In this document: one piece after another, positions 472 to 22,011 of the stretch
Numbering within the stretch: the stretch's first letter is position 1
How the letters are laid out: each line of letters begins with the position of its first letter
Virus record (IMG/VR): IMGVR_UViG_2609459830_000015
Reading direction: 5' to 3' (one strand)
Length of the DNA: 22,011 nt
Origin: a virus
Lineage: Duplodnaviria; Heunggongvirae; Uroviricota; Caudoviricetes
Notes under the pieces: model-generated
What the model was told of the DNA's origin: nothing
Databases searched by the model: none
The model's input: only the letters and a program-made list of their open reading frames with translations
Translations under genes and position numbers: made by a program

Positions 472-2190
472 ATGATTTTTAGGGATAGCTTGAGAGTATT
501 ACCTTATGGTCGAGTAGATAATGATTTCTTCCAGATAGAAGAAAGACGTTCATGGAATGCAGGGCGATATTATTGGTCTAATAGAAGGATTTTTGGTTAT
601 ATTGGAATTACTCAATCCAGTAATAAAGAGCTGAAAGATAAGTCGGGGAGAGAGGGATTCATAAGAAACCAGGCTGCAAGAGAACTGAAAACTATTATAT
701 CTAATTTGTTAACTGAACTTGCTGATAGATTTTTTGGTTCACGTTCTGATGACCGTAAAGAGCTTTTAGAACAAGTTAAGCGTGAAAAAGAGTTAAGAAA
801 ATCTGCTCAACAACAAGCTCGAAAATCAACACAAAAAAGTTTTTCAGAAGCTTTGAAGAATCAGACACCAGTTCTTGATGCTTCCTTGGAGGCTGTTAAA
901 AGGCTGAAAACTAAGCTTGATAAAACTGATGGTTCGTTAGATTTAAACTATCTTAAAATTATAGACAGTGATCTTACAAACTTAGATGCGTTGCGCAGTG
1001 AAATTAAAACGCCTATCAAACCTCCAAAACTTGGAATGTATGAAGAGAAATATAGAGACTACAGAGATAAATTTAATGAGTTCTCTGCGTATATTCTACA
1101 AATGAAGTTAGCAATTAATAAACTTGATTCTGAATTAAATAAACTTGAGCCTTCATTGTCAGCGAAAAATCACCTTGAAAAAAATCAAGGTATTATTAAT
1201 TCTAAACTAACTAAGTTTAATAACACGATAGAGGAGAAGATACATTCTCTTTTAAAAAAATGGGCCGATGAAATAAAGGTTGATCGAAGTGATTATTATG
1301 CTAAAACTATATCAGTTGTTGATTCAATAGATAATGATTCACAAATTGAAAATGTGTTTAATTTGCTCGATAGTTTATATGTTGAGTCAGTTGATACCCT
1401 AACTTTCAAATATCAATCAATAATAAAAGGTCTCGATAGATTATTTGAAGGTATAAACTTAGATTCAGCATTCTCATTATCTGAAGAAGAACGCTCATAT
1501 TTTGAAGAAAAAGCTAAAAGTTTAAACGCGCTTGCACAGTTAGGTATTAGTGTTGAGATAATATCTCATGAACTTGAAGAAATGGATTCTATGGTAACCA
1601 GAGGACTAAACTCTCTTCCTACTTCTGTAAAAGAACACCCTGGTTTTTCATTGGCGTTAAATGCTCACAGATCGCTTACTCAACAAATACGTTTCTTATC
1701 ACCTTTGAAAATATCAGGTTATCAATCCAGGCAGAGAATAACTGGAAAAAATATCATGGATTATGTCCTGAAGTTCTTTGGGGAGCGTTTCGAACGGCAA
1801 CGAATAACTATTGAATTTAGTGAAGAGTTTAAGCAAATCGCAATAACAGATATACCATCAAGGATCTATCCTGTTTTTACTAATATTATCAACAATGCAA
1901 TGTATTGGGTCAGTCTGTCAAATAATAGGCTCATAAAGATTGGTTTTGTGAATTCTTTGGTTATCATAGCAAATTCTGGTCCGGCAATTGATACCGATGA
2001 TATCCCGCGACTATTTGAACTATTTTATAGCAAAAGAGCAAATGGACATGGGGTAGGTCTGTATCTATGTCGAGAAAACCTTGCTGTTGCACATCATAAA
2101 ATATGGTATTCAGAACCTGATGAAGGCGATAACTATTTAATAAAAGATGGCGCTAATTTTGTGATCCAGTTCAATGGAGTGGAGTTCTAA
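472..2190 (+). CDS. Histidine kinase core (coiled-coil region, HisKA-like H-box, HATPase_c); probably 5'-truncated by the IS3 insertion
   Basis: 572-aa ORF. C-terminal third shows an H-box (LGISVEIISHELEEMDSMV), N-box (VFTNIINNAMYW), G1 box (IANSGPAIDTDDIPRLFELFYS) and G2 box (GHGVGLYLCRENLAV). The N-terminal ~250 aa are K/E/L-rich, coiled-coil-like. The same frame is open upstream from 346 (immediately after the IS3 end) to the first ATG at 472, with no stop. Confidence 0.8.
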   Translation: MIFRDSLRVLPYGRVDNDFFQIEERRSWNAGRYYWSNRRIFGYIGITQSSNKELKDKSGREGFIRNQAARELKTIISNLLTELADRFFGSRSDDRKELLEQVKREKELRKSAQQQARKSTQKSFSEALKNQTPVLDASLEAVKRLKTKLDKTDGSLDLNYLKIIDSDLTNLDALRSEIKTPIKPPKLGMYEEKYRDYRDKFNEFSAYILQMKLAINKLDSELNKLEPSLSAKNHLEKNQGIINSKLTKFNNTIEEKIHSLLKKWADEIKVDRSDYYAKTISVVDSIDNDSQIENVFNLLDSLYVESVDTLTFKYQSIIKGLDRLFEGINLDSAFSLSEEERSYFEEKAKSLNALAQLGISVEIISHELEEMDSMVTRGLNSLPTSVKEHPGFSLALNAHRSLTQQIRFLSPLKISGYQSRQRITGKNIMDYVLKFFGERFERQRITIEFSEEFKQIAITDIPSRIYPVFTNIINNAMYWVSLSNNRLIKIGFVNSLVIIANSGPAIDTDDIPRLFELFYSKRANGHGVGLYLCRENLAVAHHKIWYSEPDEGDNYLIKDGANFVIQFNGVEF

Positions 2191-2191
2191 T

Positions 2192-3940
2192 ATGACAGTG
2201 GCAAATTATAATTCTCTTGTCCAGAAAACTTTCTGCGAAAATGCAATTCGTTCCGTTGTCATGATTGATGACGATTTTCTGACGTATTCTGAATCAATCA
2301 GGGCGTTGAATAACGAAGTTGATTTAGACTACAACAAAATTGACTCATCTAAACGAGCCGCTACTCTTGAGAGCTTTTTTCAATCTAAAAATATGATTTG
2401 TGATGTTGACAATGGTTCTGTTAATTTCGATGTGGATCGGATTAGAAAATCAGATCTTATTATTGTAGATTATCATCTTGATAATAATGCACCTGATAAA
2501 ACACTTAAACTATTACAAGATTTGAAAGACTCCGATCATTTAAATATGATTGTAATATATACTAGAGAGAATTTAGAAACGGTTTGGATGCAGATATCAT
2601 CGACTCTCAAAGGTGCTCTGGATATCAACAGCTTGATCATTGACTACGATAATGAAGATGTCCAAAGTTATTGGGAAGACGTTGTATTACCGAACTTAAA
2701 TGATAATGGTAATAAAGCTCTCACAAGAGATGAAACAATAGCCTATATTAAAGACAGTAAGCCTTGTAGAAGAATTAAAAGATTAATACATGATGATGCT
2801 GTGTTGGAGGATCAAAAGGATAAAAACTTCATTGCAAAAATGATTGCAGAATATGCTGTGTCTAGAAATGCAATTATTTCTAGCAACACATCTGGCAATG
2901 TCATTCGGGGTGATGAAAGCGGAGTAAAATGGATTCAATGTGGTAATATCTTTGTCTCCCTATTTCATAAGGTTCAAGATGATCATGAAAACGATGGAGA
3001 TAGAATTTGGCAAACTCTCAATGATTCTCTCATTGAATGGAAACCATCTTATTATCAGTTAATAAAATCTGAAATTCAGAATGCAATCGAAGCTGAGGCT
3101 TTATCTTTTGTAAATCATTTGGCTAACGATCATTACGGTCAAGCTGCGTGGTTAAATGAGATATTAAAATCAGACTCGCCTGATATTAGATGTAGAAATA
3201 TTGACTTTGTATTTGGTAATTTATCAGAAGAGCTTTATCAAAGACTTAAAAATAATAATACGCTGGATGAATTTATCAAAAGTGTTTTTGATAGCTATTC
3301 AAATGAATACGCTAACAGCGGAGTTGCTGCATTGCTCCAATATTGCTCTTCAAAAATGGATCTGCCATCAAATAATGATACTTATCACGAAATGTATCAT
3401 GCTTTAAATATGAATTTGTCTTCAAAGAATTTTGAAGATGGTCATATTTCTACTGGCACTATTTTCTTTGATACAGAGTCGAACAAATGGTATTTATGTG
3501 TATCTGCGGCATGTGATTTGGTTCCTACTCAGGGTAACGACCCTCACCATGTAAGATTAAGTCCGCACAGGCTCATTAAAGTTCTGGAGCTTTTTAACGC
3601 CAGTCAGAGTAAAGCATTGCCATTTGCTGAACATTCGAAATATATATATGTAATGCATAAAAATCAAAGAAAATATCTCTCTATTTTCGAAGGGGATAAA
3701 ACGCTTCCTGTTGTTGATTATATGGTGGTGTTGAATCATGGAACAACAGTTGATGGCGAAGAAAAAAATATTATTTCTGCCGTGTTTTTAAGTAATATGG
3801 ATGGCAACGTGCAAAATGTTCCTGTCCGACTCAAACTTAAATCTCAACTGAGAACTGGTTATGCAGAAAGATATCAGGCTATAGCGTCTCAGTATAGCTC
3901 AAGGATTGGTGTGGATTATGTATCAATGATGCTACCATAA
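2192..3940 (+). CDS. Receiver (REC)-like domain protein with a large C-terminal domain of unknown function (putative phosphorylation-controlled effector)
   Basis: N-terminus resembles a response-regulator receiver: acidic beta1 (VVMIDDD), candidate phospho-acceptor Asp at the end of beta3 (DLIIVDYHLDNN), Thr after beta4 (MIVIYT), then a Lys. The remaining ~430 aa have no motif I recognise. Start taken as ATG 2192 (GGAG at 2181-2184, 7 nt upstream; 1 nt after the kinase stop); an in-frame ATG at 2174 is the alternative. Confidence 0.7.
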   Translation: MTVANYNSLVQKTFCENAIRSVVMIDDDFLTYSESIRALNNEVDLDYNKIDSSKRAATLESFFQSKNMICDVDNGSVNFDVDRIRKSDLIIVDYHLDNNAPDKTLKLLQDLKDSDHLNMIVIYTRENLETVWMQISSTLKGALDINSLIIDYDNEDVQSYWEDVVLPNLNDNGNKALTRDETIAYIKDSKPCRRIKRLIHDDAVLEDQKDKNFIAKMIAEYAVSRNAIISSNTSGNVIRGDESGVKWIQCGNIFVSLFHKVQDDHENDGDRIWQTLNDSLIEWKPSYYQLIKSEIQNAIEAEALSFVNHLANDHYGQAAWLNEILKSDSPDIRCRNIDFVFGNLSEELYQRLKNNNTLDEFIKSVFDSYSNEYANSGVAALLQYCSSKMDLPSNNDTYHEMYHALNMNLSSKNFEDGHISTGTIFFDTESNKWYLCVSAACDLVPTQGNDPHHVRLSPHRLIKVLELFNASQSKALPFAEHSKYIYVMHKNQRKYLSIFEGDKTLPVVDYMVVLNHGTTVDGEEKNIISAVFLSNMDGNVQNVPVRLKLKSQLRTGYAERYQAIASQYSSRIGVDYVSMMLP

Positions 3941-4011
3941 TTATTATATTTTAGGCGTGGTGATTTTTTTTCGCCATGCCTATTTTATATTTATCATCAC
4001 AATGATGTTGT

Positions 4012-4428
4012 TTATTTTTGTTTAAGTCTTCTAAGCTTCATGCATTCTAATGAGAATAATAATAGAGTTGTGCTGTATATAAAGCCAGAGTTAGTTAATA
4101 ACTTTAAATTTAATGCTTCAGGATTTTCACTGAGAAAGTGAAAGGCATAAACTAAGTATACAGCTAAAGTAGCCGTTCCAATTGTTGGTCCAATATCGCC
4201 TTGATCATGAGGTTCAAGGTTTACATTGAACTTGAAGATTAGCCATTCAAATCCCCAAGTAAAAAAAACAACTAATATCATGGCTGCGAATAATTTCGCG
4301 ATGTTATCTGCTGATGGATTCATCAGAACAGATTGTTTCTGAAAAAATTCACAAAGTGAGAGTCCGAAAAAAATAAAAAAAAGTGGTCTGGAACTAAATT
4401 TTTCAAAAACTTTGAATAGGGTTTCCAT
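4012..4428 (-). CDS. Small integral membrane protein (about 4 predicted TM helices), unknown function
   Basis: 138-aa ORF with hydrophobic stretches (PLFFIFFGLSLCEFF; LFAAMILVVFFTWGFEWLIF; IGTATLAVYLVYAFHFL; GFIYSTTLLLFSL). AT-rich like the kinase/REC cargo. Starts 38 bp downstream of the integrase stop on the same strand. Confidence 0.55.
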   Translation of the reverse strand: METLFKVFEKFSSRPLFFIFFGLSLCEFFQKQSVLMNPSADNIAKLFAAMILVVFFTWGFEWLIFKFNVNLEPHDQGDIGPTIGTATLAVYLVYAFHFLSENPEALNLKLLTNSGFIYSTTLLLFSLECMKLRRLKQK

Positions 4429-4466
4429 TTTCTTTACCTTCAGGATTATATTAGCTATTCTGATAC

Positions 4467-5738
4467 TTAGGCTACCAGAGCATTTGATCTTTGAGCTTGA
4501 ACGTAATCACTCCACCATTGCATCAAACTCTGTCGCTCTATCAGATATTCTGCACGATTGTATGCTGCGATAATTTCATCTTTTTTCGAGTGGGCAAGCG
4601 CTGCCTCAAGAACTTCAGCTCTGAATTTACCAGACTCCTCTGCCGCTGTTCGTGCAATAGAACGCATACCGTGAGCTACAAGCTCGCCTCCGAACCCCAT
4701 TCGGATGATAGCTGCGTTGGCTGTTTGTTCATGCATATGATTAAGAGGCGCTTTTATGCTGGGGAAAACCCATTCTCTATGCCCACTTATTGATTTCATT
4801 AATTCAAGGATGCGCAAAGCTTCTTTACTCAAAGGAACTTTGTGAAGCTTTTTCATTTTCATGAAATCAGCAGGAATGTTCCAAATGCTGTTGGTTGTAT
4901 CAATATCAGACCACCTTGCGCGAACGGCTTCACCCGGACGAACCCATGTCAACAATTGCCATTCAATTAGCATACGTGTTTCCAACCGGATTGACGCATT
5001 CGTCAAAGATTCCATAAACCTTGGCAATTCGCTTGGGGGAAGGGCAGGCATATTTTGCTTTTTTGGTTTACTGAATCTTTGACCAAGGTTGTCAGCCGGG
5101 TTGAACTCAATAAGTTCTTCAGTAGCTGCCCACCGGAAGATTTCATTCAGACGTGAAATGATACGGCGTAGAGTTTCCAATACGCCTCGTTGCTCAATAG
5201 GATCAAGGTGTTGTTTTAAGAGCTTAGGTCGGATCTCATTGATAGGGACATTACCCAGACCGGGAAAGACATTTCTCTCTAAGCTGCGCCAGATGTCTGC
5301 TGCATGGTCTTGTGAGATACCTGATGTCTTTACCTTCTCATCTAACCATTTCCGCGCTACGGCTTGGAGAGTGTGCTCAGTAGCACTCTTTAATGCCTTC
5401 GCCTTATCGTTGTTATGGATTTGGGGATCAACACCATTTGCCAGAAAGGAGAGATATTCATCACGTAAGGCTCTGGCTCTTGCAAGGGTAAGGTGAGGAT
5501 ATGTCCCAAGGCTCATTTTGGTTCTTTTCTTGCTCACTGGTACTGCATACCTGAAATACCAATTTTTCTTGCCTCCTTTCGCCAAAGGAGCGATTCGTAG
5601 AATCAGACCATCACCGTCAAACAAGTTGATTTCTTTATCGGCTGGCTTGGTGCTTTTGATTTCAGTGTCAGTGAGCTTCTTAGCGATTTTTGCCATTTTG
5701 GGACCCTCGGTTTTTGGACCCTTCTTAGTGGGTCCCAT
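4467..5738 (-). CDS. int: P4-type tyrosine integrase (IntA/CP4-57-like family)
   Basis: 423-aa ORF. N-terminal arm-binding region typical of P4-family integrases (KLTDTEIKSTKPADKEINLFDGDGLILRI...KNWYFRY) and a C-terminal catalytic region (...AHGMRSIARTAAEESG...EAALAHSKKDEIIAAYNRAEY) with the R...HxxR...Y pattern. The true start is probably the internal Met (MAKIAKKLTD, about 5696). Confidence 0.9.
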   Translation of the reverse strand: MGPTKKGPKTEGPKMAKIAKKLTDTEIKSTKPADKEINLFDGDGLILRIAPLAKGGKKNWYFRYAVPVSKKRTKMSLGTYPHLTLARARALRDEYLSFLANGVDPQIHNNDKAKALKSATEHTLQAVARKWLDEKVKTSGISQDHAADIWRSLERNVFPGLGNVPINEIRPKLLKQHLDPIEQRGVLETLRRIISRLNEIFRWAATEELIEFNPADNLGQRFSKPKKQNMPALPPSELPRFMESLTNASIRLETRMLIEWQLLTWVRPGEAVRARWSDIDTTNSIWNIPADFMKMKKLHKVPLSKEALRILELMKSISGHREWVFPSIKAPLNHMHEQTANAAIIRMGFGGELVAHGMRSIARTAAEESGKFRAEVLEAALAHSKKDEIIAAYNRAEYLIERQSLMQWWSDYVQAQRSNALVA

Positions 5739-5861
5739 TCAGGGTGCCATAACTCGTAGTTCTCAGCAATTCTCACTGGACGACAATAGACGTAAAAAAG
5801 CCCGCAGAGCTTGTGCTGTGTGGGCTTAGTAGACTTCATTGAACTTCAAACAACTAAAAAG

Positions 5862-5897
5862 TGGTGGGCTGGCGGGAGTTGAACCCGTATCCGAAAA
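5862..5897 (-). other. att-site core: degenerate copy of the tmRNA (ssrA) 3' end, not a complete gene
   Basis: Minus strand reads ...CGGGTTCAACTCCCGCCAGC-CCACCA, matching the 3' terminus of E. coli tmRNA as I recall it (GCGGGTTCAACTCCCGCCAGCTCCACCA) with one base missing and two substitutions just upstream; similarity decays after about 36 nt and no ssrA 5' sequence is present at 5898-6230. Same orientation as, and 124 bp upstream of, the P4-type integrase. Confidence 0.6.
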
Positions 5898-6154
5898 ATT
5901 CTTAACCAATTGAATATTAATGATTTTTCTAATTTAAAATACCTCACGTGCATTTTACGTGCATATTGTAGTACCTCTAACGTCCTGATTCTGTCCAACA
6001 TTTTGAAGTGTTTAGGCGCCACTGGGGCGGTGATTAGCGCTGTTTTGTGCTGTTCATAGCACTTCAAGACTATTCAATTCAGAGCAATCGTTGAAGAATT
6101 ACCCGTAAGGTAATATCATACTATTTAGGTAACTGCGGTTATCACCATCAAGGG

Positions 6155-6188
6155 CCACTGATGACGCTGTTATCATCAGTGGCTTTTT
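6155..6188 (+). terminator. Rho-independent terminator-like hairpin (plus strand)
   Basis: Perfect 10-bp stem CCACTGATGA / TCATCAGTGG (6155-6164 / 6173-6182) with an 8-nt loop, followed by CTTTTTGT. No T-run on the opposite strand, so it is unidirectional. Confidence 0.6.
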
Positions 6189-6230
6189 GTACCTTCACTG
6201 CACAGCCAGTGAAGTGTTGAGGAGACTAGC

Positions 6231-6572
6231 ATGAGAACAGTAGCGAGAAGATCGATACAGACGATTGAGCGTCGGACTCAACTCGTCAGTTCTTTTGTTG
6301 ACTCAAACACAGCAAACGAGTTCTTCGTGAGAAGACTGAGTGATCGTGTCTCCCCGGCACGTCAGCTGTTTATTGTGACATTGAACAATGAGGTTCGTGA
6401 CGGTGACGTGATCCCGTTCGCTGAGATCGCCATGAACAAAGAAAAATTGCGCTATGTTGTGAAGCCAGCAGATCAGTATCCTCAGTATGTAAGCAGTAAT
6501 CTGCTGAAGAAAATTGAAGCGGCAATTGCTCTATACATGCAGAAGAACTACAGGGAAATTAACTACCATTAA
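6231..6572 (+). CDS. Hypothetical protein (113 aa), first gene of a cargo cassette between att and the prophage integrase
   Basis: ORF preceded by GAGGAG (6219-6224) 6 nt before the ATG; no recognisable motif. An 8-bp-stem hairpin (CTTCACTG...CAGTGAAG, 6193-6214) sits in the leader. Confidence 0.6.
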   Translation: MRTVARRSIQTIERRTQLVSSFVDSNTANEFFVRRLSDRVSPARQLFIVTLNNEVRDGDVIPFAEIAMNKEKLRYVVKPADQYPQYVSSNLLKKIEAAIALYMQKNYREINYH

Positions 6573-6583
6573 AAGGTTGCTGA

Positions 6584-7351
6584 ATGGCTCCTGCGTTAAT
6601 ACCTTCATATAACAAGGACTTGAACATTACGCCATTTGGCGAAAAACGTCTTATTGAGTCATTCTATTTTTTCACTGCCGAGGCTGGCTTACTGAGGGCT
6701 GATGAGTACATTGTCAGTTCTGGTGAGTTTCAGTACTACTTGGATGTGTATCAACTGGGATGTTCCACCGACGACTTTTTTTTAGACTATGGCAGTGACC
6801 TTCTTGATTCGAAGGTTCCAATGCAGGATCTGGTCAATACCCTCTTGGGTCTTGATATGGTAGACGATAACAAAACGATAAGAATAGGTCGTATACAGTT
6901 CAACGACTTTAATTTTATCGAAGAGAACGGTCAGATGATGACCGGAAAGCAAGTGAAAAGCGCTGTTATCGCACAGGATTTCCAATCAGCAGGTTTGGCG
7001 CGTGAGATCTATAAAATGCTTGCGCGAAAGCATGAGTTTCTCATCTGCGATAACATTCAAAGTATTGCCGGTGGTGCTCTTTGGGCTAGTAGCATCATTC
7101 GAATTGCCGAGGTACGGATCTACAATTCACGCACGAAGAAATTTATGGACATACTTGGTCCAGGTGCGCGTGGCGTTTCAGGTACTTTGCCATGGAGTGC
7201 GAATGATCTGTCTGTAGATGAGATTGTTCGCTGGGGTCGTGCGTATGATGATGAAAACTGTTGTCGTCACATTGTACATGTTATCTGTAAGGACCGACTC
7301 ATTGACGATCAATTTCATGATTATGTTTCGATAGGTGGCGCGACAGAATAA
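6584..7351 (+). CDS. Hypothetical protein (255 aa), second gene of the att-int cargo cassette
   Basis: ORF starts 11 bp after the upstream gene's stop and is followed by a terminator; no recognisable catalytic motif. Confidence 0.65.
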   Translation: MAPALIPSYNKDLNITPFGEKRLIESFYFFTAEAGLLRADEYIVSSGEFQYYLDVYQLGCSTDDFFLDYGSDLLDSKVPMQDLVNTLLGLDMVDDNKTIRIGRIQFNDFNFIEENGQMMTGKQVKSAVIAQDFQSAGLAREIYKMLARKHEFLICDNIQSIAGGALWASSIIRIAEVRIYNSRTKKFMDILGPGARGVSGTLPWSANDLSVDEIVRWGRAYDDENCCRHIVHVICKDRLIDDQFHDYVSIGGATE

Positions 7352-7363
7352 CCATCAAAAAGA

Positions 7364-7387
7364 CCCGGCATTTGCCGGGTTTTTTCT
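7364..7387. terminator. Bidirectional rho-independent terminator between convergent genes
   Basis: Hairpin CCCGGC-ATTT-GCCGGG (7364-7379) flanked by an A-run upstream and T-run downstream (aaaaaGACCCGGCATTTGCCGGGtttttt), so it works for the plus-strand cassette and the minus-strand integrase. Confidence 0.6.
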
Positions 7388-18377: not shown

Positions 18378-19234
18378 TGCGTACTGATAATAACGAACAT
18401 AAAGCACTATTCACCATCCCGACGGCAGCGTACAGCTCCGCCCTCGCAAACATCAAGCCCCTGCCAGAGCAACGGAGAATCACCGGGCATAAGCAGACTG
18501 ATGCTTATCTTTGGGTGCTGGAGGTTATCCGTCTGAACGAACCCGCACATCTGGATGCTGCTGAGGCTGCGCTGGTGAAAATTAAAATTTCCCCAAAAGA
18601 GGCTCAGGAACGCTATTCGCGTTATCTGCTGGCGAATGGTTACGAACCTTTCCAGGTTGCGTTCGGCATCATCGGCATGGATAACCCTGCGCAGGTTATC
18701 AGGAACGCCCGGGAGAACATCAAAAAAGCGGCATCAGTCAGGGCTACGTTTGGTAGCTATGAAGCAGCGCTCGAAGATGTGGAAGCAGAGCGGGTCATCA
18801 GGTCTTCCCAGAAATTTATCAACGATCATCTCTGGGGCTGGACTGCGGCAGAGAAAAAAGCCGGAAGCATTGGCGGCAGCCGCATGAACGAAATTGATGA
18901 ACAGCGTCGGGCATTTGTTGATGGATATCGCGATGTGCTGCCTGAGCCTTATACGCTGTCTGATGTTGTTCGCGAGTTCGTTTACTGGGACTGGCTCTAC
19001 AGTGTTCGCCACACTGCAACTAAAGAACAGGGCGATGAGTTTGGTTACTCTGAGCATCACGAATCGGTATATGACCGGGAGCGCTACCTTGAAAAATTGC
19101 TGGCAACCATCAAACCGGTGACACGCGCTGAAGCCGTGGAGGTGTGCCGCTGGTTTCTGGCAAGTGGTAAGGGTGAATGCATGGAAGACGACGGTGCAAC
19201 GGTCATTCTCAATCTGGTTGGTGAGTGCGAATAA
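18377..19234 (+). CDS. Hypothetical phage protein (285 aa)
   Basis: ORF coupled to the primase (TAATG overlap at 18375-18379) and to the downstream Q-like gene; no recognisable motif. Confidence 0.55.
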   Translation: MRTDNNEHKALFTIPTAAYSSALANIKPLPEQRRITGHKQTDAYLWVLEVIRLNEPAHLDAAEAALVKIKISPKEAQERYSRYLLANGYEPFQVAFGIIGMDNPAQVIRNARENIKKAASVRATFGSYEAALEDVEAERVIRSSQKFINDHLWGWTAAEKKAGSIGGSRMNEIDEQRRAFVDGYRDVLPEPYTLSDVVREFVYWDWLYSVRHTATKEQGDEFGYSEHHESVYDRERYLEKLLATIKPVTRAEAVEVCRWFLASGKGECMEDDGATVILNLVGECE

Positions 19235-19626
19235 TGCGTGATATTCAGATGGTTCTCGAACGCTGGGGGGCATGGGCGGCAAGTGGTAACGCCGGGGTGG
19301 ACTATTCTCCGATAGCTGCTGGATTTAAAGGCCTTTTACCATCCACCGCTAAACCTCGCCCGGCCTGCAGCGATGATGACGGCCTTATCATCGAAAACTG
19401 CCTTACGCGCCTGAAGAAGAAAAAACCGGACGAGTATTCGCTGCTGGTAGCTCATTATCTGCTGCGCATATCAAAAAGGCAGATTGCCAGAACAAGAAAG
19501 AAGAGCGAAAAGGCAATACGAATTGAGATGCAGATTGCTGAAGGATTTATTGACGGATGTCTGTCGATGCTGGGTGTAAGGCTGGAGATGGACGACTGGC
19601 TGCCCAAAAAAGTAAAAAATGATTAG
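19234..19626 (+). CDS. Q-like late-gene antitermination protein (phage 82/21 Q type)
   Basis: MRDIQMVLERWGAWAASGNAGVDYSPIAAGFKGLL... resembles the N-terminus of phage-82-type Q antiterminators as I recall them. A strong intrinsic terminator lies about 60 bp downstream. Start taken as ATG 19234 (TAATG overlap) rather than the track's GTG 19225. Confidence 0.6.
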   Translation: MRDIQMVLERWGAWAASGNAGVDYSPIAAGFKGLLPSTAKPRPACSDDDGLIIENCLTRLKKKKPDEYSLLVAHYLLRISKRQIARTRKKSEKAIRIEMQIAEGFIDGCLSMLGVRLEMDDWLPKKVKND

Positions 19627-20032: not shown

Positions 20033-20485
20033 TTTGTGGTAAATGGGCGGCTGGTGGGTGTGGTGGTTGTTGCTTTCCCGTTGCTGAAAAAGAAAGCATC
20101 AGGCGATTAGCAGGGTATCAGTTACCCGTTGAAATTTTTAAATACCTCACAATTCAGGCGGTTGACTGTTGTCTGGTTTGCGGGGAGTTTGTTAAAAGAA
20201 ACTGGCATGGTGAATCCCCCTGTGCGGAGGGGCGATCAGCAACCAGGTATATGGGATAATCGCGGATTCAGGTGCTGATACTGAATTCACCGGGAGGCAC
20301 CCGGCACCATGCTTTGCCACAAAAGTGTTGTTTCTGTTTTTCTCAAACTATCATCGTTATCCCTTTATTTCCGGCTGCGCATGGCGTGGCCTTTTTTTTA
20401 CGACCAGCCACTGGCAGATGGCCATCCTGTAATTTGATTCCGGTTCCGGCTTTTTAACTCTGTTCCTGTACACGGGAGAAATTCG

Positions 20486-20774: not shown

Positions 20775-22011
20775 GTAAGCGTGCAGCAAGAACCGTATTG
20801 ACGGGGATGTGTTATTCAGTCGGCAGTGCTACGCGCCAGGGGAGCAGTTCGCCGACCCGGTTTATCGGCCAGTCGGCTATGACGTCAAGGACATAGCGGA
20901 GGTAGCTTTCTGGCTCCACTCCGTTCAGTTTGCACGTCCCGATCAGGCTGTACAGCAGCGCTCCCCGCTCTCCTCCATGATCCGAACCGAAGAACAGGTA
21001 GTTTTTGCGGCCCAGACTGACCATCCGCAACGCATTTTCAGCGATGTTATTGTCAGCCTCAGCCCAGCCATCGTTCGCATAGTACGTCAGCGCCGGCCAC
21101 TGGTTCAGGGCGTATGCGAACGCTTTCGCCAGTTCTGAGTGTCGCGACAGGGTTTTCATCTTTTCACGCAGCCAGCTTTCCAGGGATTTCAGCAGCGGTT
21201 TCGTTTTCAACTGACGTTCGGCAAGGCGCTGCTCCGCCGTCATTCCCCTTATCTCTGCCTCGATGGCGTACAGTTCGCCGATCCGTTTCAGCGCTTCCTC
21301 CGTCAGGGCTGACGGGGTGCGAACGTGCACATCGTGGATTTTACGGCGGGCGTGAGCCCAACAGGCGGCTTCCGTTATCCGGCCATCCCGGTACAGCTCG
21401 TTGAACCCGGCGTATGCATCCGCCTGCAGTACACCACTGAACCCCGCAAGATGGGTCTGCGGATGGATGCCTTTTCTGTCCGGGCTGTAAGCGAACCACA
21501 CCGCCGGCGCCAGCGTTGACCCGGCGTTACGGTCGTCACGAACGTAGGTCCATAACCGCCCGGTCTTCGTTTTCTTATTGCCTGGCAACAGCACCGGGAC
21601 AGGCGTGTCATCAGCATGGAGCTTACCGTCAGTCAGCACATAGTCCTGAAGCGCTTCTTCCAGCGGTGACAGTAGCCGGCAGCATGCATCCACCCAGCCC
21701 GACAGCAGTGAACGACTCAGCTCCACGCCCTGGCGGCCGTACATTTCAGACTGGCGGTACAGCGGGGTGTGCTCTGCATACTTTGAGATCAGCACGCGGG
21801 CCAGCAGCCCCGGTCCTGCGATACCCCGCTCGATGGGCCGTGAAGGCGCGGGGGCCTGCACGATGGCATCGCACTGAGTACAGGCATGCTTTTCACGTAC
21901 AGTCCGGATAACCCGGAAGGCGCTGCGCATCAGCTCCAGCTGTTCGGCGGCATCCTCACCCAGATAGCTCAGCGAGCCTCCACATTCCGGGCAGCATGAC
22001 GCTGCCGGCAG
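20775..22011 (-). mobile_element. IS66-family insertion sequence, one end only (element continues right of the window)
   Basis: TnpC-type transposase on the minus strand running to the window edge; terminus beginning GTAAGCG at 20775, 37 bp beyond the transposase stop. The GTAAGCG terminus is from memory of IS66-family ends. Confidence 0.75.
20812..22011 (-). CDS. IS66-family transposase TnpC (N-terminus outside window)
   Basis: The minus-strand frame is open from the track's Met (21930) to the window edge: ...[48 protein letters not shown]..., giving the CxxC...CxxC zinc-finger typical of IS66 TnpC upstream of the DDE region. Confidence 0.88.

Follow-up and report, generated by a model that had tools for sequence, protein, structure and literature searches.

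Results

The A–B Cassette Lies between the att Site and the Prophage Integrase

The stretch of DNA analysed here, called the window below, is a 22,011-nt Caudoviricetes record (IMGVR_UViG_2609459830_000015), whose positions 6231–7351 are occupied by a cassette of two plus-strand genes, referred to as A (6231–6572, 113 aa) and B (6584–7351, 255 aa). An earlier note on this DNA had described them as coupled open reading frames (ORFs) with no recognisable motifs, located between att and the prophage integrase gene (int), convergent with the latter and bracketed by terminators on both sides, and had put them forward as a candidate anti-phage or toxin–antitoxin locus. Both ORFs are present in the ORF listing. 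The stop codon of A is separated from the ATG of B by 11 nt, and an AAGG sequence is found 7 nt upstream of that ATG. A matches PHROG 2594 (E 9e-26) and B matches PHROG 3307 (E 1e-59), both annotated as "unknown function", and homologues of both proteins keep a constant length down to ~30% identity. Thus, A and B are real genes rather than chance ORFs. In the RefSeq annotation of E. coli E110019, gene A is 81 aa long and begins at an internal start (6467–6712 of locus L001). The 113-aa start is preferred, because the N-terminus it adds is invariant in the family (MRT.ARRSIQTI, with an R-S-[IV]-Q-T-I motif) and is preceded by a Shine–Dalgarno sequence, GAGGAG, at 6219–6224.

The left end of the prophage is marked by a remnant of the 3' end of ssrA, which encodes transfer-messenger RNA (tmRNA). 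The remnant contains the att core and is located on the minus strand at ~5850–5890; positions 348–362 of the Rfam tmRNA model match at 5873–5887 (minus strand), and a search of the window for a whole tmRNA or tRNA found none. Homology with other lysogens of the same phage starts at 5862, and window position 5872 corresponds to the first nucleotide of the GenBank record of phage PhiR12_1. The cassette is therefore inside the phage genome, between att and int, and the att-site identity of the ssrA remnant is confirmed. To the right, the minus strand encodes a 392-aa lambdoid prophage integrase of the tyrosine type (7393–8571; Pfam Arm-DNA-bind_2 and Phage_integrase domains; PHROG 1), convergent with the cassette as had been claimed, and an excisionase (8526–8735) recognized in a PHROG search. 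Between the stop codons of B (7351) and int (7393) lies a GC-rich hairpin, ACCCGGCAAATGCCGGGT (7363–7380), with T runs past the stem on both strands; the scan called it on the minus strand, and the sequence is that of a putative two-way intrinsic terminator. Of the two bracketing terminators proposed earlier, this one stands. The other, a hairpin upstream of A, was rejected as a boundary terminator: it sits downstream of a promoter-like site and travels with the cassette as part of its leader (see below).

Neither protein was matched in searches of Pfam, NCBIfam and PADLOC; in PADLOC-DB v2.0.0, which the earlier note had suggested checking, no defence family matched either protein at E up to 0.1. 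PDB sequence searches with the family profiles returned nothing meaningful, and no literature on either family was found using accessions, PHROG identifiers, PhiR12, PhiR41, pMMCU2, SSU5, or GNAT together with defence. Both are small families with members in Gammaproteobacteria only, and every member that has a name is "hypothetical"; the B family has 56 representatives among the 1.8 billion proteins searched. The possibility that A and B are paralogues, or halves of a split enzyme, was considered and discarded, since hhalign found no relation between them and no fused A–B protein was present among the hits.

Protein B Is Predicted to Be a Divergent GNAT-Fold Acyltransferase

The structure predictions that had been called for were made for both proteins. 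The model of B has a GNAT α/β fold with a β4-α3-β5-α4 core, and the toxins AtaT and TacT are among its matches. The GNAT motif A (Q/R-x-x-G-x-G/A), which forms the coenzyme A (CoA) pyrophosphate-binding loop in GNATs, appears in B as Q134-S-A-G-L-A139, encoded by positions 6983–7000, and the segments ...KQVKSAVIAQDFQSAGLAREIYKML...FLICDNIQSIAGGALWASS resemble GNAT motifs A and B. The pattern [QR]-x-[AST]-G-L-[AG] is kept in 29/29 close relatives. A B-family profile reaches, over residues ~91–184, multi-domain proteins with Pfam Acetyltransf_1 (E ~1e-5 to 1e-4), and Pfam GNAT models give weak matches in three of 32 B-family members (best E 0.007). Residues P3, Q123, Y143, D156, Q159, W167, and W204 are invariant across the wide family. 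Judging by model and profiles, B is a very divergent GNAT-fold acyltransferase, which would bind acyl-CoA and transfer the acyl group; the earlier statement that the pair has no recognisable motifs does not hold for B. A Zn site or a catalytic Cys was also considered (C60, C155, C227, and H229 are invariant among close relatives) and was ruled out, as conservation of these residues does not extend to the wider family. The protein is acidic, with an isoelectric point (pI) of 4.8 and a family range of 4.6–5.5.

Gene B contains a frameshift-prone run of eight T residues (T8) at 6776–6783. In all five PhiR12 records and in two IMG/VR contigs the run is T7, and B is frameshifted after residue 66. 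The site could be a slippage-prone on/off switch, or the change could be a lineage mutation. B is frameshifted next to an intact A in the PhiR12 lineage, in Xenorhabdus indica and possibly in plasmid pMMCU2; A is intact in all ~60 loci compared. The records of the PhiR12 phages, in which B is frameshifted, describe isolates grown on E. coli K-12 or C.

Protein A Is a Small Basic Protein

Protein A is basic (pI 9.8), as is the family throughout. Its model (pLDDT 84) consists of a short helix, a five-strand β-meander, and a 20-residue C-terminal helix, and resembles the β-sheet arm found in Hat1, RimJ/RimL, and other GNAT enzymes.

The Cassette Has a Structured Leader

About 140 nt upstream of A is kept with the cassette across differing host elements, and the non-coding DNA before A is always at least 190 nt long. 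A consensus scan of the plus strand revealed a putative σ70-like promoter, TTGAAG-17 nt-TATCAT, at 6091–6119, and a TTGnnn-17-TAnnnT arrangement is positionally kept in cassettes of other phages. The spacer of the promoter holds a palindrome, ATTACC-N5-GGTAAT (6098–6114), that varies on both arms by lineage (TAGCT/AGCTA in Yersinia, TACCT/AGGTA in Pantoea). A second palindrome, GGTAAC-TGCG-GTTATC (6128–6143), is located just past the predicted transcription start. In a comparison, with up to two mismatches allowed, of leaders that precede an A of at least 64% identity, the form (G/A)ATAAC-N4-GTTAT(C/A) was found in 24 of 28 distinct leaders, 85–111 nt upstream of the A ATG. The second palindrome is 92% pairable and mostly of conserved sequence, with one symmetric variant (AACAAC/GTTGTT). 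It is a candidate operator or, alternatively, may be a small RNA hairpin; a cassette-encoded factor might use both palindromes as operators.

Further downstream, a terminator-like hairpin with perfect 11-bp arms, GCCACTGATGA / TCATCAGTGGC, followed by TTTTT, occupies positions 6154–6188 of the plus strand (stem 6154–6183). A hairpin with a T run is present at the equivalent place in the Atlantibacter, Leclercia, Yersinia, Pantoea, and other cassettes; 83% of alignment cells are paired, and some pairs changed on both sides (UA 9 / CG 7 at one). There is no space for a promoter between this hairpin and the ATG of A, so transcription of A and B has to pass through it. By prediction, the hairpin should end most transcripts before gene A, and such an arrangement points to attenuated or conditional expression. 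A second leader hairpin, CTTCACTG / CAGTGAAG (6193–6214, plus strand), was predicted by RNAfold 5 nt before GAGGAG. Hairpins of other sequence stand at this position in other lineages; seven of eight pairs change on both sides and 64% of cells are paired, which gives the second hairpin weak to moderate conservation support. The covariation statistics of the leader are modest, and the promoter, palindrome, and hairpin calls are made at the level of consensus.

The leader also holds an imperfect 13-nt direct repeat (6135–6147 and 6166–6178). No Rfam family matched the leader: at E up to 5, the search recovered only the remnant of tmRNA and, below threshold, an IsrM fragment to the left of the cassette.

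The Pair Is Found in Many Unrelated Positions and Replicons

The integrase of the window is encoded in 133 of 5,426 complete E. coli genomes, ten of which carry the A–B pair with it. In related ssrA prophages with the same integrase, the att–int slot holds the A–B pair, a DUF4760 gene, or nothing, and is thus the variable cargo slot that had been anticipated. Prophages of Shiga toxin-producing E. coli O26, O103, O111, and O157 carry in it one gene, of ~300 aa and on the opposite strand, for a DUF4760 protein; two such genes (1585–2493 of locus L028 and 1522–2445 of locus L031) have no PADLOC match.

In ~60 loci spanning 30–100% identity, A invariably precedes B, and the two are 10–35 nt apart. 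Outside the E. coli slot, the pair is found in siphovirus tail operons beside the tape-measure gene and in myovirus baseplate operons, both in Yersinia, Pantoea, and Xenorhabdus, and also next to Q-like and Ant genes. Wherever it lies in a phage, the cassette has the orientation of the late genes. On a Photorhabdus chromosome, it forms an islet between hrpA and hcp; Photorhabdus akhurstii has two tandem A–B copies, each with its own leader (3967–5039 and 5633–6711 of locus L022). In SSU5 and related phage-plasmids, the pair is located between the lysis genes and parA. These SSU5-like carriers, hundreds of phage-plasmids in Klebsiella, Escherichia, and Enterobacter, account for much of the 375 PLSDB plasmids with a B homologue, a set that also includes Acinetobacter plasmids. 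Among the latter are the 10-kb mobilizable OXA-24/72 plasmids pMMCU2 and pAba79f of Acinetobacter baumannii, which carry the pair (A, E 4e-14; B, E 6e-31).

A variable slot, together with many unrelated positions and replicons, indicates an autonomous accessory module. By these comparisons, the pair is self-contained, horizontally mobile accessory cargo and not a core phage function, with the caveat that it is syntenic and common within SSU5-like elements. The homologues are thus not conserved core phage genes; had they been so, this would have spoken against the earlier proposal.

A DUF2971 protein is encoded near the pair in two unrelated contexts. In an Atlantibacter prophage it is the immediate neighbour of the pair (4055–5029 of locus L012; PADLOC candidate PDC-S31, E 8e-31), and in SSU5 it lies 2.3 kb downstream of the pair (9085–9843 of locus L003; PDC-S31, E 2e-33).

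Other Elements of the Window

The lambdoid early region extends to the right of int, with helicase and primase genes, a CI-like repressor gene (13965–14657, minus strand), and a Q-like antiterminator gene (19225–19626, plus strand). Just past the latter, the small RNA STnc100 was recognized at 20176–20348 (Rfam, 108 bits), followed by an insertion sequence transposase gene (20812–21930, minus strand).

To the left of att, a P4-type integrase gene (4467–5738, minus strand) heads a low-GC island (472–4428, GC 0.29–0.37). Two mobile elements, the P4-like-integrase island and the lambdoid prophage, are thus arranged in tandem at one ssrA-derived att; a single degenerate copy of the ssrA 3' end divides them, and the att core is common to both. 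In E. coli E110019, the same prophage instead adjoins ypjA, the end of CP4-57 on the K-12 map. The island encodes a 572-aa protein with HATPase_c and HEF_HK domains (472–2190), an overlapping 588-aa Response_reg_2 (PF19192) protein (2174–3940), and a 138-aa membrane ORF (4012–4428, minus strand). PADLOC gave no more than marginal matches for the histidine-kinase/receiver pair, whose Pfam families have been described from biological-conflict systems. As a defence candidate, this pair may be more conventional than the A–B cassette.

Discussion

The results presented above lead us to propose, tentatively, that the A–B cassette is a toxin–antitoxin-like addiction or abortive-infection module with a GNAT effector; we regard this as a plausible reading that stops short of being probable. 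Since B appears to be a GNAT-type acetyltransferase, a toxin–antitoxin or exclusion module is a plausible role for the pair. In such a module, B would acetylate a positively charged cellular target, a protein or an amine, and A would bind the acidic B and keep it inactive. A, alone or as an A–B complex, would repress the cassette promoter via the palindromes at 6098–6114 and 6128–6143, and loss of the element, or an infecting phage that disturbs gene expression, would free B. We infer that A and B may bind each other in an obligate complex, that B may be toxic, and that the cassette may be autoregulated and active against phages. For the anti-phage effect, the evidence by association consists of the variable slot and the DUF2971/PDC-S31 neighbour, and the effect itself is a matter of conjecture.

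Several lines of evidence suggest the toxin–antitoxin-like module. The pair is strictly and tightly linked in the A-then-B order, which is the gene order of GNAT-ribbon–helix–helix (RHH) systems, and it moves as a unit, together with its own ~140 nt of upstream DNA, into variable slots. B is a GNAT by fold, motif, and distant profile matches, and the GNAT fold is well established among toxins. The two proteins are oppositely charged across both families, which would fit a tight neutralising complex. Small plasmids, phage-plasmids (here beside par genes), and prophage cargo slots, where the pair is found, are the usual seats of addiction modules. B is the gene that decays, with A undisrupted. 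The palindromes in the promoter spacer and at the start site, with their symmetric changes between lineages, are consistent with autoregulation, and a DUF2971/PDC-S31 candidate is found near the pair in two unrelated contexts.

Other observations weigh against this reading. No toxin–antitoxin, defence or GNAT family model matches A or B in Pfam, NCBIfam, or PADLOC, and the B of the window has no Pfam match even at E 0.1. The Q/R-x-x-G-x-G/A motif decays in some distant members of the B family, and the helix-4 site of the usual catalytic Tyr is occupied by the invariant W167. With 255 aa and a pI of 4.8, B differs from the known GNAT toxins, which are smaller and basic. A is not of a known antitoxin type: Pfam searches and fold comparison found no RHH, helix–turn–helix, or DUF1778 and no known DNA-binding fold. 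Typical antitoxins are fast-evolving and partly disordered, and A is conserved as much as B or more (mean column identity of 76% vs. 69%). A terminator-like leader hairpin is unusual for type II toxin–antitoxin operons. Finally, as B is 2.3 times longer than A, finding it disrupted two or three times carries no statistical weight, and the indels in pMMCU2 B may be sequencing errors. Thus, the candidacy put forward in the earlier note gains from the fold shared with TacT and AtaT, from the frameshifts in B next to an intact A, and from the promoter palindromes, and loses from the nature of A and from the size and acidity of B.

Among known systems, the type II GNAT-RHH operons (TacA-TacT, AtaR-AtaT, KacA-KacT, and ItaR-ItaT) share with the cassette a bicistronic order with a tightly linked partner upstream. 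Their tRNA-acetylating toxins are basic proteins of ~160–180 aa. The cassette differs from them in that A has no RHH or DUF1778 domain, that B is acidic rather than basic, not compact, carries W167 at the usual place of the catalytic Tyr and has no Pfam GNAT match, and that the leader contains a terminator-like hairpin. Because both the RHH/DUF1778 antitoxin and the compact basic toxin are lacking, the pair should not be filed among the GNAT-RHH systems.

The order of promoter, short structured leader, terminator-like hairpin and genes is similar to that of type III (ToxIN-like) toxin–antitoxin systems. Membership in this type was considered and rejected, since the cassette has one imperfect 13-nt repeat pair and no tandem array, and both of its genes encode proteins, neither of them ToxN-like.

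Phage morons (λ bor and lom, HK97 gp15, and the P2 old/tin/fun slots) are independent promoter–gene–terminator units. Like them, the pair is set among conserved phage genes, is carried by some phages and missing from others that are otherwise syntenic, and is co-oriented with late genes. At the consensus level, the cassette has its own promoter-like site of kept position and a putative two-way terminator downstream, plus the extra terminator-like hairpin between promoter and genes. Unlike morons, it also occurs on non-phage plasmids and chromosomal islets, consists of two genes behind a structured leader, and encodes a predicted cytoplasmic enzyme, not an envelope protein. By analogy, the pair would work most like a GNAT-type toxin–antitoxin operon packaged as a phage moron.

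A more specific proposal is that A and B represent a new family of conflict modules, in which a GNAT acyltransferase with a dedicated small basic non-RHH partner is silenced by a leader attenuator and an operator, is released by infection, terminator-resistant transcription or loss of the element, and acetylates a basic protein rather than aminoacyl-tRNA, which would be a target class new to bacterial immunity and addiction. We consider this proposal, taken as a whole, unlikely but worth stating.

The main rival to the toxin–antitoxin reading is that A and B are the subunits of a non-toxic acetyltransferase directed at one specific host, incoming-phage or immune-protein target, with A as the basic targeting or substrate-binding subunit. 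It is a possibility that we place somewhat on the unlikely side. Such an enzyme would serve superinfection exclusion, lysogenic conversion, or anti-defence. The last role is exemplified by AcrVA5, a GNAT anti-CRISPR protein that acetylates Cas12a; AcrVA5 and other phage-borne GNATs are, like B, found on temperate mobile elements, and the substrate that B acetylates could likewise be a protein from a competing system. Two-domain GNAT-like enzymes (Hat1 with its N-terminal and GNAT domains, FemX, and tandem-GNAT proteins) are also among the closest systems. A protein that is well folded (pLDDT 84), conserved like B and similar to the GNAT β-sheet arm looks like a structural subunit rather than a labile antitoxin, and terminator-resistant late transcription could cross the leader hairpin of a cassette that is co-oriented with late genes. 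However, neither the 10-kb plasmids nor the parA neighbourhood would be expected to the same degree for a phage-specific exclusion or anti-defence factor, the hhalign comparison gave no A–B relation or sign of a split enzyme, and the searches yielded no fused A–B protein.

Alternatively, A could be a DNA- or RNA-binding operon regulator and B a stand-alone GNAT that detoxifies a basic small molecule to the benefit of the lysogen or plasmid host; aminoglycoside-like antibiotics, polyamines, and toxins of the microcin or aminoacyl-nucleotide type would be examples. We find this improbable. Resistance enzymes of this kind need no conserved, tightly linked partner that co-evolves family-wide, the AMRFinder annotation in PLSDB flags blaOXA alone on the Acinetobacter plasmids, and A has no known DNA-binding fold.

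A reversed polarity, with A as a small basic toxin and B as an enzymatic antitoxin that acetylates it, as in type VII systems, would agree with the charge and toxin-like size of A (113 aa), with B being an enzyme, and with the strict pairing. It is nevertheless very improbable, as loss of B next to an intact A should then be lethal or counter-selected, and just this state is found in the viable, plaque-forming PhiR12 phages and in X. indica. Least credible of all is a core phage or plasmid housekeeping function, e.g., in virion assembly, lysis, or partition, which could account for the syntenic position between lysis genes and parA in SSU5-like phage-plasmids and for the frequent embedding in tail operons, but not for the absence of the pair from 123 of the 133 E. 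coli genomes with the same integrase, for a slot that can be empty, for a position that differs with phage type, for the non-phage 10-kb plasmids and the chromosomal islet, or for PhiR12 phages recorded as propagated isolates with a frameshifted B.

Should the pair prove to have no phenotype, it would be one more uncharacterised moron. If, on the other hand, B is toxic or target-specific and is controlled by A, the cassette would represent a new GNAT effector architecture, in which a non-RHH partner accompanies an acidic 255-aa enzyme behind an attenuator-type leader. A function would then be assigned to PHROGs 2594 and 3307, which are carried by prophages of E. coli, Yersinia, Pantoea, Photorhabdus, and Xenorhabdus, by SSU5-like phage-plasmids, and by the OXA-24/72 carbapenemase plasmids of A. 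baumannii, and on those plasmids the cassette could be a clinically relevant maintenance determinant. Three features make the pair of interest: the partner protein is unusual, the leader is structured, and clinically relevant phage-plasmids as well as resistance plasmids of Acinetobacter carry it widely.

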